Below are positions 616 through 62,510 of a DNA stretch of 64,000 bases, piece after piece. Origin of the DNA: Eledone cirrhosa (Eukaryota); NCBI GenBank assembly GCA_964016885.1, contig OZ024750.1, forward strand, positions 20,646,001-20,710,000, given 5' to 3'. Position 1 is the stretch's first letter. Each line of letters begins with the position of its first letter. The position numbers and the translations under genes were made by a program. The notes under the pieces are model-generated. The model saw only the letters and a program-made list of their open reading frames with translations, did not search any database and was not told the DNA's origin.

Positions 616-1011
616 GTAAAGTTATATTTAAAATTGTTGGGTTACAACTAGTAATTATTTATAACTGATATAAAAGCACTCCACAAATACTTGGAGTATA
701 TTTACAATATTAAATAAATGGAAAACTATATTTATAAAACCATATTTATTTCATTATATATATTTCGGGGATATCATATTAACAATATGCTATGCCTTCA
801 TCAGACAAAATACAATATAAACAGTTTTATAGATAAACAGTTTTATAGATAAATATATTCGACATACCGTAATAAAACATCAACTTCATTTGTTTATATT
901 GTATTTTGTCTGATGAAGGCATAGCATATTGTTAATATGATATCCCCGAAATATATATAATGAAATAAATATGGTTTTATAAATATAGTTTTCCATTTAT
1001 TTAATATTGTA
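616..1011. mobile_element. Short fold-back non-autonomous PLE-like element, family A, copy 1
   Basis: Inverted arms ~704-823 / ~891-1011, unique ~90-nt tail on the left, (TA)n on both sides; second copy at 7191-7575, fragments at ~7840-7900 and ~8362-8405. Confidence 0.8.
902..968 (+). ncRNA. Type I hammerhead ribozyme (family A); inverted copy at 747-812 (-)
   Basis: Stem I TATTTTGT/ATGAAATA (two G-U), CTGATGA 910-916, long stem II, GAAA 948-951, minimal palindromic stem III (ATATAT), AUA cleavage triplet. Confidence 0.7.
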
Positions 1012-1470
1012 TATTTATATATATATATATATTATATATATATATATATATTATATTATATATATATATATATAATATATATATATATATATATATATAT
1101 ATATATATATATACTATATATATTATAAATATATATATATATATATATTATATATATATATAATATTAATATATATATATATATATATATATATATATAT
1201 ATATATATAATATATATATAATATATATTATATATATATACATATATATATATATATATATATACATATATATATATATAATATATATATATATATATAT
1301 ATATATATATATATAATATATATATATATATATATATATATTATATATATATATAATATTTATATATATATATATAATATTTATATACGTTATTCCGGGT
1401 TGAATCGGAGGTAACCACAGTAAGTAAGGTACTCAATACATAGCAGAGTATAACAGTTTTAATATAGAAG

Positions 1471-1521
1471 AGATTCTACAGGACTAGAACTGTTTCATTT
1501 ATTAGAAATCATCAGGAATCT
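1471..1521 (-). ncRNA. Type I hammerhead ribozyme, family B left arm
   Basis: Reverse complement: AGATTC-CTGATGA-tttctaataaat-GAAA-CAGttctagtcCTG-TA-GAATCT; stem II weak in this copy. Confidence 0.75.
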
Positions 1522-4159
1522 GGGTATCAAAAAAATAAATATGGTATTTATAGGTCCCTACAAGTGGTAGGAGAGGGTGGGGAGTGGATAGGTGCAGGTC
1601 ATTGGTTGATAGAAAAGGGAATTCATTAAAAGCTAATTCTACAAGGCTATAGTTAATTTTTATTTTTATTTATATTTATTTATGTTTTTAGAGTAACAAA
1701 GGCAGACAGAATTCTATAAACAGGTTCCGGATGCCATACCATTCCTTGTCGATAAGTTTCTCTTAAGCTAACAGATGTCTATAAAGTCAGTGGGGGGTCA
1801 GTCATGGTCGATAGAATTAAAGAAAAGGGAGATTCTTTAAAAGCTAAAGTCATTAAGGTTCTACTAAGTGACAAAGGTCTAGAGAATTCTGCAGACAGAT
1901 TCAAAATACTGAGTGCATATCTTACTATTATCTTCGAACTTCTCTTAAACTAATCAACTATATGCCAAAAATCAACAGACACATTCACAAAAAAACCAAA
2001 AAAAAAACAAAAAAACAAAAAACAAAAAAACACATACTCACTCACACACTTACGCGCAACCATAAACACACACACAAACAGATATACACACATAAAAACA
2101 CACACACATATATAAAAAATATATAAATATATATAAATATAAATATATATTCATGTACACACATACATACACACATACATACATACATACATATACAATA
2201 CATATACACATATACATAAATATATATATATATATATATATATATATATATATATATACATATATACATATACATACATATATACATATACACAGATACA
2301 CACACACACACACATATATATATATATATATATATATACACACAGATACACACACACATACACATACATACACACACACATACATATATACACAAATAAA
2401 TACACTCACACGCATACATACAAACACGAGTATACATATGTATAAATATTTATACACACACACACACACATACATATATATATATATATATATATATATA
2501 TATATATATATACACATATATATATATATATATATATATACACACATATATATACATACATATACATATATATATCCATACATATACAAACATACACATA
2601 CATACACAGACCTATACATAAATATACAAATATATATACAGACATATAACGCGTATATACACACACATATACACACACATATATATATACACATACATAT
2701 ATATATATATACATATACATATATATATATATACATATATATATACATATATATACATATATACACATACACATACACATATATATATATACACACACGC
2801 GCATACACACATACACACACCCACACACAAAATATATATACACACTCTCTCTCTCACGCACATATATATATATATATATATATATATATACACACACACA
2901 TACATACACATACATACATATATATATATATATACACATATATATACATATATATATATACACACATATATACATCTATACACATATACACAAATATATA
3001 TATATACACACACATACACACACATATACACACATATATACATACATACACACATACACAAACACAGACACATACAAATACACATATATATACACACATA
3101 TATACACACATACACACACACATATATACATATATATACATATATATATATATATATATATATATATACATATATATACATATATACACACATACATACA
3201 CACGTACACATACATACAGATACACATATATACATATACACACACATACACACACATATATATATATATATATATATATATATATATATATATATATATA
3301 TACACACATACATATACATACATATACACACACACACATACACACATATATACATATATACATACAAATATATACACACACACATATATATATATATATA
3401 TATATATATACACATATATATATATATACATACACACACACATTCACACATACATACACACACATATATATATATATATATATATATATATATATATACA
3501 CACACACATACACATATACACATATATATACACATATACACGCACATACATACACACATACACATACATATACATAAACATACATACATACATACATACA
3601 TACATACATACAAACACATATATACACATATACACATATATACATATACATATATATATATATATATATATACATACATATATATATATATATATATATA
3701 CATATACACAAACATATACATACATATACATACATAAATATACACACATAAAACACATATACACACAAACATATATATATACACACATATATATATATAT
3801 ATATATATATATATATATATATATATATATATATATATATACACACACACACACATACACGAATACACATATACAAACAAATATATACACATACAAGTAA
3901 ATAGGTACTCAATAAATATACGCATATACGCAGGCACATAAAGACACCTCTACAGGCAGAAAATGTAGATACGAAAGAGGTACTCACATAACCATAGTGG
4001 CCGTGTTTCAGGTTGAGGAGGGGTGGGGGTAGGGTGGGGAGGAGGTATAGTGGCCAATAGGGGGAGGTCGTTTTTAGCCATCGGGCTTTAACACTGGCTT
4101 AAAGTGTTTGAATGTTGCAAAGTTCTTGTGCATGCAGTTCGGGCAGTGTTCAGAGAGTT

Positions 4160-4513
4160 AGTTGCAAAAAAACTTACATCGGCATGACCTCCAACAACTT
4201 TAAGACCCGTTGGTATGCCCATACCCACTCCTTCAGAAGACCGGATAAATCAAATCAAACAACACTCGCCTCCTACGTTTGGGACCTCAAAAGGAACTCC
4301 ACCCCCTTCACGCTTAATTGGAAAATACTCCAGAAAGCGCGCTCTTACAACGGAGGACACAAGGGCTGCGACCTTTGTATTTCAGAGAGCTACGAAATTT
4401 TATTCGCCAAGGGCCCGCTACTGAACAAACTCTCTGAACACTGCCCGAAATGCATGCACAAGAACTTTGCAACATTCAAACACTTTAAGCCAGTGTTAAA
4501 GCCCGATGGCTAA
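4160..4513 (+). pseudogene. C-terminal GIY-YIG endonuclease fragment of a Penelope-like element
   Basis: TYIGMTSNNFKTRWYAHTHSF...TTLASYVWDLK...WKIL...CDLCISE...LLNK...CMH aligns by eye with the GIY-YIG domain at 31758-32165; 5'-truncated at the inversion point. Confidence 0.85.
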
Positions 4514-60111: not shown

Positions 60112-60180
60112 ACACAGACGATTTGTTGTTTCGCAATGTTAATTGTGAATAGGATTACCAATTCAAGCTCATCAGTGGGT
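60112..60180 (-). ncRNA. Hammerhead ribozyme, slightly decayed, in (TA)n-flanked element 59957-60326
   Basis: ACCCA-CTGATGA-GC...GC-GAAA-CaAcaaaTcG-TC-TGTGT; single mismatches in stems I and III. Confidence 0.6.
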
Positions 60181-60507
60181 GATGAATTTGTATCCTAGAC
60201 ACTTCTAAGTAAATTAAGAAACTGAATAGTGTGCTATATATAATAGCGCACATGACATCCTAGCGCGTCTCACAAACTTACACCACTAAAAATAGCAGCT
60301 AGGTTTACAAGACAAGCAATTTGAACATATATATATATCTGTGTTCGTTTTTCTTTTATATTCTATTATTATATATACACATATATATATACACACACAC
60401 ACACACACACACACACACACATATATATATATATATATATATATATATATATATATATATATATATATATATATATATATATATATATATATATATATAT
60501 ATATATA

Positions 60508-60882
60508 GGGCGGATAAAATTCCCAAGATCCATTGACGAGTTCTCGCCAGTGGTCTTTGTCCTTCATCATCGCCGCTACGTCCTGCGTCTTCAAGAGACC
60601 CGTGTCCCTTCTCAGAGCATCAACATATGTCAACCTCGGTCTTCCTCTTCTAGTGTATCCGTGTAGGGGCTCCCACAGGAGCGCTGAGTGCAATGTCAAC
60701 TCTGAATGTCGGTGAACATGTCCAGTTAAATTCAGTCTCGTTTGTGTTCTACATCCTCACTGGATACTGATTAATGTTCAAAGCCATACTCAGCATCCTC
60801 GTGTAGCACCCATTTCCTATGTGAGTGACTTTCTTGGTCAGTGACCAAGTCTCAGACCCACACAGTAGTACAGACTCCACGT
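60508..60882 (-). mobile_element. RTE-clade LINE 3' fragment
   Basis: VESVLLCGSETWSLT...YTRML.MALN...GHVHRH...[24 protein letters not shown]...MKDKDHWR; (TA)n flanks. Confidence 0.85.
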
Positions 60883-61747
60883 ATATATATATTATATATA
60901 TATATATATATACACGCATATAATATCGTAATATTATGAAATTAAATCAAATTGTTTAAAACTACATGCAAATTCATTGTTTTCCTTTTTCCAAATATAT
61001 AAATATATGTATATATATATATATATATATATATATATATATACATACATACATACATACATACATACATACATACATACATACATACATACATACATAC
61101 ATACACACATATATATATATATATATACATGCATATATATATATAAGGTATAGTGTTTTTCTGTGCGTCTGTGTCTATGACGATTGCTTCATCTTAGATG
61201 ATAAATACCTGAACGTCTCAATCATACCTGCAGATTAACACCCTCGCACAGAGAGCTGACCTTTCCACCCGGGAACAAAGGCTCCACTCTGAGTCACTGA
61301 TATCAAATCACAATCGAAATGAATCGCTTCGCATCTACGTTAGATTTTTTTTCAATAAGGTTGAACACAAACTTTTATAATATCATGTCACTCAGGGATT
61401 TCATGTTTGGTATTCCCGCTAATGATTAATCAACGGTGGAACTCCTTCATCAGAACATTAAATGTAGCTGTTTTAATGAATGCAATATTCTAACATTCCG
61501 GATGATTGTCCTTCGCCAGAAAATCTGGACAAAGGAAATTGAAGAGCTTATTTTGTTTTTGGCTACAAAACTAAAATATCTTTCAGTTAATAAAATGTAC
61601 CATTAAAGTGTACTTTTAATATATATCTTGGTATGGTATTTTACTTTAATGGCGCTGAACATATTGGAAGAAAGAAAATACAATAATAACAAATATATCG
61701 TGTGGGAATAGGATAACAAATAGAGGAAAATTATTTTTGCTATTGTT

Positions 61748-62510
61748 AATGTACTTAACAATAGCAGATGCACTCCACAATAGCAAAAACAAACACTACA
61801 GGGAACGTCACCCCAGAAAGAATTCATATAGACTTTTGACTGAGGAATGCTCTCAAAACTGACCAATGGGTGGAGTGACCTTACAAATTCTTATAACATT
61901 GAGATTGGGTATAACACACACACATTTTATTTGATTATTTTATTTTGTTCCTTTACCACCTTATTCCTTCTACCACTTTATCATTTTTTTTAGCTGACTC
62001 TAACGCCAAAACCACTACCAACATAAGAGTAGAGGTCAGATGTACTTAAGAGTAACAAGAACAACCACTACAGATTGCCTTGCCTCACAACGAATTTCTA
62101 TAGACTTTTGACTGAGGAATGTTCTCACAACTGACCAATGAGAGGAGAAGATGTCCTTTGATGCTGAAATTCGTTTGTTTAAATTCATATGATTCCAGTT
62201 CCTCAGTGAAACAACAACCCAACCAGGAACTGGGCATATCAGAGTATTGACAAAGTTAAACACCTCAACAACATGTGTACTCGTCTCTACCACACTAATT
62301 CGAACTGCCTGAAGAGGTCACAGCCAAAGATGGGTGTCACCGAAATATATATAGCAGTAATAAACGAAGCCAAATTTTTAACATTTGACTTATTTATTTT
62401 ATTTTATTTTACATTTCTCCGGAGTAACTAAAGCAACATGCGCACTTCGTCGAGTGCTCCATCTGCACACTCCGGTGTTGATATACAACCAACATATACT
62501 CAAAATTTAT
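61748..62510 (+). mobile_element. 3' UTR/pLTR fragment of a diverged family P relative
   Basis: Similar to 36395-36975 including the hammerhead and tail; ends in (TA)n. Confidence 0.85.
62304..62358 (+). ncRNA. Type I hammerhead ribozyme (family P relative)
   Basis: ACTGC-CTGAAGA-GGTCACAGCCAaagaTGGGTGTCACC-GAAA-TATATA-TA-GCAGT. Confidence 0.85.

Follow-up and report, generated by a model that had tools for sequence, protein, structure and literature searches.

The question raised by this locus is how a short signal comes to be shared by an autonomous PLE and by non-coding repeat families that are otherwise unrelated, and what that signal does at the ends of the elements. The window analysed here is the whole 64,000-nucleotide stretch of Eledone cirrhosa DNA. 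A sequence-only reading of it had found the hexamer G(C/T/A)ACTC, or GAGT(G/A/T)C on the other strand, near (TA)n-joined tails and proposed it as a linear cis-signal for the PLE protein. PLE RTs form the sister group to telomerase, so a defined RNA that positions such an RT is relevant to RT-RNA recognition. The choice of PLE start sites, the inverted one-tailed insertions and the borrowing of PLE enzymes by retrozymes are open questions in the parts of the literature drawn on here.

Results

The hexamer matches 60 times across the whole window, and 16 of the 17 hexamers listed by the sequence-only reading lie exactly where it placed them; the exception, a TCACTC placed at 22795, begins one base earlier, at 22794. 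Many hexamers remote from TA tracts sit inside a SINE-like repeat. When 115 complex TA-tract flanks were collapsed to 64 groups, tail-ward GAGT(G/A/T)C was present in 11 of the 64 de-duplicated (TA)n flank groups, compared with a mean of 2.8 and a maximum of 7 in 200 dinucleotide shuffles, while the opposite orientation was present in 2/64. The enrichment therefore survives de-duplication against a shuffled background, a check that the reading itself had suggested, though two of the 11 positive groups, an RTE-like LINE end (49728) and 48441, are probably chance. There is good support for a cis-signal that the autonomous PLE has in common with unrelated non-coding families, and it is tied to element ends. 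The reading had put most sites about 40-65 nt (range about 20-77) from the TA tract; measured to the next (TA)4, 16 of the 17 sites lie at 23-79 nt, and 34532 is an internal 5'UTR copy belonging to the autonomous element with no adjoining TA tract.

That autonomous element, Hy1, and a second family, Hy2, contain the following features.

30469..36977: Hy1, autonomous PLE assigned by its motifs to the Hydra clade, inverted insertion in (TA)n
Hy1 left arm, minus strand: 5'UTR, RT-EN ORF and 3'UTR; short end at 30469
Hy1 right arm, plus strand: 5'-truncated; long end near 36977
34534..34573, minus: Hy1 hairpin 1 in the 5'UTR, ACTC/GAGT base, TC bulge (hexamer at 34532)
34456..34474, minus: Hy1 hairpin 2, GCTC/GAGC base, TT bulge; overlooked by the sequence-only reading
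36770..36830, plus: Hy1 type-I hammerhead motif, core 36777, z -2.6
30567, minus: mirror copy of the Hy1 hammerhead
36882..36921, plus: Hy1 hairpin 1 in the long arm (hexamer at 36918)
62416..62455, plus: hairpin 1 with a mismatch at pair 1, from a diverged copy of Hy1 (hexamer at 62452)
1390..7163: Hy2, second Hydra family, 5'-truncated inverted insertion with a GIY-YIG fragment (4112-4513); its 3'UTR is rich in microsatellites, and hammerhead cores lie at 1515 and 7103
1431-1449, minus: Hy2 hairpin 1; short arm ends 5 nt before the hairpin

The Hy1 translation has an RWK motif and DKT replacing DKG, with the RT followed by a C-terminal GIY-YIG endonuclease. The frame at 31648-32823 contains a CxCx5C linker, and CxxC and CxH around conserved E and N, with no CCHH; these linker and endonuclease signature columns are also conserved in an alignment. 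Together with a canonical type-I hammerhead motif near the 3' end and the (TA)n target, these motifs assign Hy1 to the Hydra clade. The ORF is not intact, and the frameshift at a C-run near 32750 reflects either decay or an assembly error. Pfam did not recognise the RT, and no sequence relative was found in the PDB; the top fold matches were TERT, with no PLE structure among the fold matches listed.

The signal proved to be a base-paired structure instead of a linear hexamer. Judged from the sequence, the motif in element sense corresponds to the 3' strand of a small hairpin. This hairpin has four base pairs with an invariant top C-G, one pyrimidine-purine pair, a 2-nt bulge on the 3' side that begins with U, and a free upper part whose stem is variable. 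At 12 of the 17 sites the hexamer closes such a hairpin by four Watson-Crick base pairs. The site at 62452 has a single mismatch, and 48662, which belongs to family B by homology, has lost the 5' strand at an inversion junction. The sites at 22795, 62994 and 59978 do not fit the bulged hairpin and were rejected as members.

In 53 sequence-anchored hairpins, with a 2-nt bulge assumed, the first inner pair is Watson-Crick in all 53 (37 C-G and 16 T-A) and so covaries perfectly, whereas it is paired in 0/53 when the bulge is set to 0 or 1. Partner permutation gives p<1e-4 for inner pairs 1-3, and base pairs 1-3 covary as well, through compensatory switches. Readings as a splice donor, an initiator or a Pol III box, which relied on consensus sequences, were dropped since the paired positions covary. 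The earlier proposal that a protein reads the linear hexamer and gauges from it the distance to the tail end can call on the enrichment described above and on the outside loci, where the base strands and the 3' flank are strongly conserved in sequence, and this conservation suggests that sequence-specific contacts are likely involved too. However, compensatory variants substitute for the hexamer, the 5' partner strand is always retained and the tail-end distance ranges over 43-87 nt. The covariation largely refutes this proposal, which now seems scarcely credible.

A hairpin is present in 30 of 32 Hydra families from metagenomes. By the sequence anchor, 23 of the 32 have two tandem hairpins, spaced about 64 nt apart, in the interval from hammerhead to ATG, and the descriptor finds two in 21/32 family representatives but in 0/640 shuffles. 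Hairpin 2 lies 15-49 nt upstream of the ATG in 23/23 two-hairpin families, and about 30 nt upstream of the ATG at 34426 in Hy1; one outside locus, L032, has a single hairpin. TA is most frequent at -6 relative to the hairpin (24/53). In viral contigs, two protein scans found no relatives; three matches to the twin-motif pattern there, none with a PLE protein by tblastn, were taken as chance.

Some caveats concern detection. MAFFT left the 5' strands of the variable-length hairpins unaligned, and a descriptor with permutation tests replaced a covariance model. The loose descriptor is poorly specific (13/64 flank groups compared with 4.25, maximum 11, in shuffles); the tight one gives 12/74 compared with 0.37, maximum 3, and was drawn from the outside consensus but fixed once the window had already been seen. 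The hairpins are thermodynamically weak, with z<-2 in just 2 of 15 folded segments; several of these segments adopt other folds, and hairpin 1 is absent from the minimum-energy fold of the Hy1 5'UTR. In the best 150 of 294 window matches to Rfam 15, no family scored as high as its gathering threshold; these were mostly sub-threshold microsatellite or palindrome matches to miRNA models.

The non-coding and remaining elements are listed below, with short-arm ends given relative to hairpin 1.

616..1010: family A inverted insertion with hammerhead; hairpin 1 678-697, minus; short arm -5
7190..7572: second family A copy; hairpin 1 7252-7271, minus; short arm -5
14426..16735: 485-bp tandem retrozyme-like unit with hammerhead
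16142-16177 (example): hairpin 1 of the 485-bp unit, GTTC/GAAC
16257-16274 (example): hairpin 2 of the 485-bp unit, TCTC/GAGA
23173..23197, plus: hairpin 1 of the element at 22925-23247, ACTC/GAGT; missed previously
23324..23510: family B inverted insertion; hairpin 1 23374-23397, minus; short arm -5
26100..26541: family G inverted insertion; hairpin 1 26182-26205, minus, GTTC/GAAC; short arm -4
26652..26804: small inverted insertion; hairpin 1 26703-26734, plus, GCTC/GAGC, with a loop resembling that of the 485-bp unit; short arm -3
26904..27100: family B copy; hairpin 1 26953-26976, minus; short arm -5
27150..27265, plus: tail-only fragment between two TA tracts; hairpin 1 27158-27182, GCTC/GAGC
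37147..37691: family D inverted insertion; hairpin 1 37197-37277, minus, with a 71-nt insert; short arm -4
39453..39477, minus: hairpin 1; single-arm element with its start at 39373 (hexamer at 39451)
48637..48713, plus: family B long arm cut inside the hairpin, 5' strand missing (hexamer at 48662)
55807..56234: family H inverted insertion with hammerhead; hairpin 1 55875-55899, minus; short arm -3
56372..56510: family B copy; hairpin 1 56421-56444, minus; short arm -5
63187..63215, minus: hairpin 1; single-arm element with its start at 63144 (hexamer at 63185)

An exact match to the motif had been reported missing from families C, E and G and the 485-bp unit. Families C and E have no canonical hairpin at their short end, but family G (26100) and the 485-bp unit carry the hairpin with compensatory changes. 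The 485-bp unit is the only tandem non-coding unit with a type-I hammerhead per repeat (cores at 15502, 15987 and 16472 plus; 14573 and 15058 minus), the other families being monomeric inverted stubs. Its short end is at hairpin 1 with offset 0, within TA microhomology, and its long end lies 6 nt before hairpin 2.

Element ends fall about 0-6 nt 5' of hairpin 1 for short arms or hairpin 2 for long arms. In the window, all 12 of the inverted insertions that bear a hairpin, representing nine families, have short arms ending at -5..0 from hairpin 1, and long arms end relative to hairpin 2 at -3 in Hy1 (36977, from the hairpin's first base) and -6 in the 485-bp unit. Hy1 short-arm copies end at 36877-36878, 4 nt ahead of hairpin 1, and (TA)n is joined at 36877 in contigs from 3 of 4 sequencing runs. 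In outside loci, 17 of 20 mappable junctions lie at -6..0 (n=11 at hairpin 1, n=6 at hairpin 2; P about 8e-8 against a TA-site null), as mapped by local alignment, which was used instead of an exact walk that substitutions halted (11/20). The other 3/20 lie elsewhere, the ends of L018, L032 and L054 are off-site too as judged by eye, and L081 is an inverted pair of two short arms. TA microhomology blurs the end offsets. A handful of fixed positions, which are likely restriction sites, account for most of the ends in the RAD-seq run.

Thus the motif does not gauge 40-65 nt to the tail end, as had been supposed. The hairpin-to-tail-end distance varies over 43-87 nt, and the constant distance is on the other side, where the short arm ends 3-5 nt before the hairpin; the tail end is linked instead to a second hairpin, one that most insertions lack. 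All 17 TA-flanked inverted insertions in the window have one long and one short arm, including families C (two copies), E and F and the 11237-11934 element, which lack a canonical hairpin at the short end. Since ends fall 5' of hairpin 1 or hairpin 2, the PLE tail appears to be the stretch between two hairpin-linked start sites, and since hairpin 2 is tied to an end yet absent from the inserted copy, it must act on the template.

These junctions bear on whether the hairpins serve mainly in expression (translation without a cap once the hammerhead has cleaved, RNA stability or promoter function), with TA-rich microhomology accounting for the link to ends. Such roles would suit the position of hairpin 2 just before the ATG and the enrichment of TA sites alongside hairpins. 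However, the ends avoid the remaining 73% of TA sites in the span (P about 8e-8) and the non-coding 485-bp unit retains both hairpins, which makes this explanation very improbable.

Discussion

The reading favored here, with a probability of roughly 0.7, is that twin hairpins dock the Hydra-clade RT on its RNA template and that copying starts about 2-6 nt 5' of each. The GIY-YIG endonuclease would nick both strands of the (TA)n tract, and each 3'-OH would be primed on the UA-rich spot immediately 5' of a hairpin. The PLE protein, bound to both hairpins, would prime once beside each and so make one long and one short arm: cDNA started at hairpin 2 would copy hairpin 1 and give the long arm with its tail, and cDNA started at hairpin 1 would give the short arm. 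The two 5'-truncated cDNAs would then be joined head to head. Hairpin 2 would reach DNA only if copying continued through a tandem or circular template, and any RNA retaining both hairpins could be mobilised in trans.

It is unlikely that the hairpins instead act in DNA, with the endonuclease recognising them in a donor copy or in single-stranded cDNA, cutting the TA-rich spot 5' of each and thereby fixing the ends. The sites are TA-rich, as is the target, and counts of G-T and A-C in the hairpins (9 vs 5) do not distinguish the folding strand. The available text of Craig et al. (2021, PMC8557442) suggests that endonuclease cleavage shapes the tail and inverted ends, and earlier work cited in the available part of PMC11167929 had the D. 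virilis Penelope endonuclease requiring the tail for plasmid recognition. However, all ends join target (TA)n directly, as primed synthesis predicts, and the same part of PMC11167929 has Poseidon tail boundaries mapped directly as RT start sites on RNA.

Hairpin-directed RNA cleavage or 3'-end formation just 5', followed by RT starting at an ordinary RNA 3' end, would yield identical end geometry, and RNA-seq read ends were seen at Poseidon start sites (PMC11167929, sections available). Against this, Poseidon initiates internally on uncut RNA in vitro according to the same sections, no Rfam family reached gathering score among the best 150 of the 294 matches, and independent cutting does not supply the coupling needed for a long and a short arm per insertion. 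This alternative is considered decidedly unlikely.

Returning to docking of the RT, a more specific version is offered tentatively, at somewhat less than even odds: a clade-wide twin-hairpin RNA origin on which a protein dimer sits on one RNA, one subunit per hairpin, and both nicked strands are primed simultaneously. If true, this would explain the one-sided tail, the asymmetric inverted insertions and hijacking by unrelated retrozymes in one step, and the sister group of telomerase would gain a defined and portable RNA element, lying 3' of the template start and setting it. The twin hairpin makes start-site choice mutationally testable, as a moved hairpin should shift the start. It also provides a short structural signature that links non-coding repeats to Hydra partners and marks true element ends, and if portable it could steer chosen RNAs into (TA)n sites.

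Comparison with known systems

Literature searches turned up no description of the twin hairpin. In the available text of Craig et al. (PMC8557442), the Hydra clade comprises C-terminal EN+ PLEs whose tail is attributed to endonuclease properties; the elements here share with it RWK, DKT, the CxCx5C linker, no CCHH, a canonical hammerhead, the (TA)n target and copies that are inverted, 5'-truncated and tailed on one side only. That text does not describe hairpins (0 occurrences of the word), while in the published consensus sequences the hairpin is, by eye, canonical in 3/6 and variant in 2/6, and 1/6 stops before it.

Non-LTR retrozymes are described in the accessible part of Cervera and de la Pena (2020, PMC7229834) as non-coding units that occur in tandem or as monomers and carry type-I hammerheads, with PLEs proposed to mobilise them. 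The 485-bp unit fits this description as given there and in the available text of Li, Clavereau and Pollet (2026, bioRxiv 10.64898/2026.07.22.740005). In these portions of both papers retrozymes are tied to PLEs by the hammerhead they share, by co-occurrence and by homology of the pLTR, and no RT-recognition element is named, and the 2026 authors call the mobilisation mechanism unresolved.

For the Anolis Poseidon PLE in vitro, Frangieh et al. (2024, PMC11167929), in the sections available, report that RT initiates at two internal positions, one at each boundary of the tail, and that RNA as far as +172, on the 3' side of the start at +111-118, is required. The likenesses are that the tail is the stretch between two start sites (here from sequence junctions), that RNA 3' of the start is required (proposed likewise here) and that a dimer is predicted (proposed here for Hydra). 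However, Poseidon belongs to a different clade, initiates in one AC-rich stem loop inside the ORF, is described in those sections without tandem bulged hairpins, and has no homology between start site and cut DNA, whereas UA microhomology is inferred here.

Stringent L2-clade LINEs, UnaL2 and ZfL2, and their partner SINEs have a 3'-tail stem-loop (PMC4176376, PMC1636434, as far as the available text of each goes) that is likewise small, RT-bound and common to non-autonomous passengers, a likeness in working only. According to that text the L2-clade tail has one loop, located 5' of the priming site, and each insertion receives a copy of it. In contrast, the Hydra hairpins are two, each 3' of a start site, the second not copied and short arms lacking any, and it is their base and bulge that are conserved while the loop is free.

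Penelope-like elements of the window

The window is animal DNA very rich in (TA)n, and it contains Penelope-like elements (PLEs) of two Hydra-clade families:

1390-7163, Hy2, a truncated second Hydra family
30469-36977, Hy1, the autonomous Hydra-clade element

The Hy1 protein, whose named homologues include Argonauta and Octopus entries and thereby suggest a cephalopod host, has an RT and, after it, a GIY-YIG endonuclease; it contains RWK, DKT and the CxCx5C linker and lacks CCHH, a combination that marks the Hydra clade according to the accessible text of Craig et al. (PMC8557442). 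In public databases, Hydra proteins of cephalopods go under the name 'GATA zinc finger domain-containing protein 14-like'. In the Hy2 3'UTR (2000-6600), ~2 kb of (TA/CA/TG) microsatellite is present in both arms, and this simple repeat appears to travel along with the element. Most short TA-flanked families have a type-I hammerhead core, whole or partial, and occur as inverted insertions.

The shared signal is a base-paired hairpin

The sequence-only reading proposed that unrelated families share a hexamer, GAGT(G/A/T)C in element sense, near the (TA)n-joined tail. Its coordinates were exact in 16 of 17 cases and off by one in the other, and the hexamer was indeed enriched, occurring in 11 of 64 de-duplicated flank groups compared to 2.8 in shuffles (maximum 7 in 200 shuffles) and, in the opposite orientation, in 2 of 64. 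Two of the 11 groups are probably chance matches. The observation stands, but the signal is not a linear hexamer; it is one strand of a base-paired hairpin in which partner bases vary together. At 12 of the 17 sites, GAGT closes four Watson-Crick pairs with an upstream ACTC, plus an inner stem, and in element sense a 2-nt bulge lies directly 5' of GAGT. The sites at 22795, 62994 and 59978 lack this structure and were rejected as members. The 485-bp unit (a tandem retrozyme-like non-coding repeat, 14426-16735) and the 26100 family, which had been listed as having no exact hexamer, both carry the hairpin by a tight descriptor, which also added three elements that had been overlooked. This descriptor identified 12 of 74 window flank groups (13 when long inserts were allowed), compared to 0.37 in shuffles.

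Many of the background GAGTTC matches came from a SINE-like dispersed family (20100-20283, 24373-25237, 41585-42503, 57027-57252 and 63466-63591), in which the segment supplying GAGTTC is presumably B-box-like. Two LINE 3' ends that we take to be RTE-like (49160-49776 and 60509-60876) are likewise joined to (TA)n, and the first has a chance GAGTAC ~50 nt from the TA tract, without a hairpin.

In the window, families C, E and F and the element at 11237-11934 have tails and no canonical hairpin. Inverted insertions that target TA, have a defined long end and a defined short end, and do without the canonical hairpin lie at 12046-12521, 39811-40411, 38023-38438, 39129-39358 and 11237-11934. These families may ride a PLE of some other clade or a Hydra element that has diverged. 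Family F has an ATCC/GGAT hairpin at a different position.

Tandem hairpins in Hydra loci

For an independent test, 87 Hydra loci were taken from contigs of metagenomes and MAGs; of 340 confirmed metagenome stretches, the 80 best were used. Nine loci lie within GTDB bacterial MAG contigs, most likely as host-animal contamination. Forty of the 87 include the ORF start plus 150 nt upstream, and clustering at 80% identity sorted these into 32 families. By a pairing descriptor, 21 families have two hairpins, 9 have a single one and 2 have none, while double hairpins occurred in 0 of 640 shuffles. When hairpins were anchored by sequence alone, 53 were found across 30 of the 32 families, and 23 families had two. 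With a 2-nt bulge, Watson-Crick pairing at the first inner position held in 53/53 (37 C-G, 16 T-A), and setting the bulge to 0 or 1 nt left it paired in 0/53; inner pairs 2 and 3 were paired in 35/53 and 36/53 (partner permutation of inner pairs p<1e-4, related sequences being not fully independent). The first base of the bulge is always T. Base-pair variants covary, with GCTC/GAGC in the outside loci, ACTC/GAGT and GTTC/GAAC in the window, and TCTC/GAGA and GCAC/GTGC as single cases each. The top C-G pair is invariant in accepted hairpins, having been a requirement of the descriptor. The hairpins are thermodynamically weak and often differ from the minimum-energy fold.

The median distance between the starts of the two hairpins is 64 nt (55-83), and 15-49 nt separate the end of hairpin 2 from the ATG. 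Both hairpins are present in the Hy1 5'UTR (34534-34573 and 34456-34474), and the non-coding 485-bp unit likewise keeps both. Family D (37147-37691) has a 71-nt insert in hairpin 1 and, by eye, a ~110-nt insert in hammerhead stem II; retention of its paired bases despite these inserts suggests selection on the closing structures. One outside Hydra family (L032, 110-260) has a single recognisable hairpin before its ORF and an off-site 3' end. Among six Hydra consensus sequences inspected by eye in Craig File S7 (PMC8557442, as far as accessible), the hairpin was canonical in three (coral, sea cucumber) and variant in two, and one sequence stops short of it. In the Naiad and Chlamys files, which are far larger, five motif 9-mers had only three occurrences, none apparently at element ends, although line breaks may mask matches.

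Hairpins and element ends

Each of the 17 inverted insertions examined in the window (15 mapped, two further read off) pairs a short arm with a long one. Relative to canonical hairpin 1, the short arm of 12 insertions from 9 families stopped at -5 in six, -4 in three, -3 in two and 0 in one (nt, negative being 5' of the hairpin), the last falling inside TA microhomology. Between hairpin 1 and the long end the spacing varies (43-87 nt). In elements that show hairpin 2, the long arm ends short of it, by 3 nt in Hy1 and by 6 nt in the 485-bp unit. In the outside loci, with five contig-end rows excluded, 17 of 20 mappable junctions lay at -6 to 0 from hairpin 1 (11) or hairpin 2 (6) (P about 8e-8 against TA sites drawn from the same span), and a few outside ends were off-site. 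(TA)n was also joined at 36877, 4-5 nt 5' of hairpin 1, in contigs of three runs (at least 8, 1 and 1) among the 24 of 466 loose-end rows listed; the first run is possibly the window's own source and the other two are from one study. Of five opposite-strand pairs in the outside loci, three combine a long with a short arm, one, from a rearranged region, has two short arms, and one is not head to head.

Two insertions differ in form. At 27150-27265, a tail-only insertion between two TA tracts begins ~7 nt 5' of hairpin 1, as if copying had covered only start site to start site. At 22925-23247, two unrelated arms meet head to head and both have a hairpin-like tail, possibly a chimera of two RNAs or two adjoining insertions.

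Covariation establishes the structure; the doubling of the hairpin in tandem, its persistence in units that have no ORF and the geometry of the ends are also shown. Three less likely rival explanations are that RNA processing at the hairpins sets the ends, that the endonuclease does so by cutting hairpin DNA, an endonuclease role being favoured in general terms in the accessible text of Craig et al. (PMC8557442), or that the hairpins serve expression. Hairpin 2 is tied to an end yet is absent from the product, and so must act on the template. The preferred reading, to which we assign a probability of roughly 70% from these sequence comparisons, is that the Hydra protein docks on the RNA hairpins and primes beside each. 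It would bind each hairpin on RNA and prime on a UA-rich spot just 5' of it, once per target strand; TA is found at -6 in 24 of 53 hairpins. The weak folding of the hairpins, the families with tails and no canonical hairpin, and the off-site outside ends speak against this reading. A cDNA started at hairpin 2 would include hairpin 1, whose 3' strand is the hexamer. In a bolder form, which has slightly less than an even chance and is based on the pairing of long and short arms, a dimer would contact the two hairpins simultaneously.

Comparison with known systems

Published work already covers the class of element, the hammerheads, the one-sided tails, the pair of start sites and the link between retrozymes and PLEs, as far as the accessible parts of these sources go (PMC8557442, PMC11167929, PMC7229834, PMC4209133, bioRxiv 10.64898/2026.07.22.740005). 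The literature searched, in which coverage was thin for subscription papers, Repbase notes and figures, gave no account of bulged hairpins in tandem, whether for Hydra or for any other PLE, and Rfam gave no match at gathering score among the best 150 of 294 listed. A fold search had TERT as its top match, with no PLE structure among the matches listed. The twin hairpin is a real, clade-wide cis-element, apparently new to the literature, in a known retroelement class. In a Poseidon PLE, according to the accessible text of PMC11167929, the tail runs from one internal RT start site to the other, the target is cut and extended on both strands, and the RNA is needed as far as +172. In L2 LINEs, the RT recognises a stem-loop common to its passengers (PMC4176376, accessible text).
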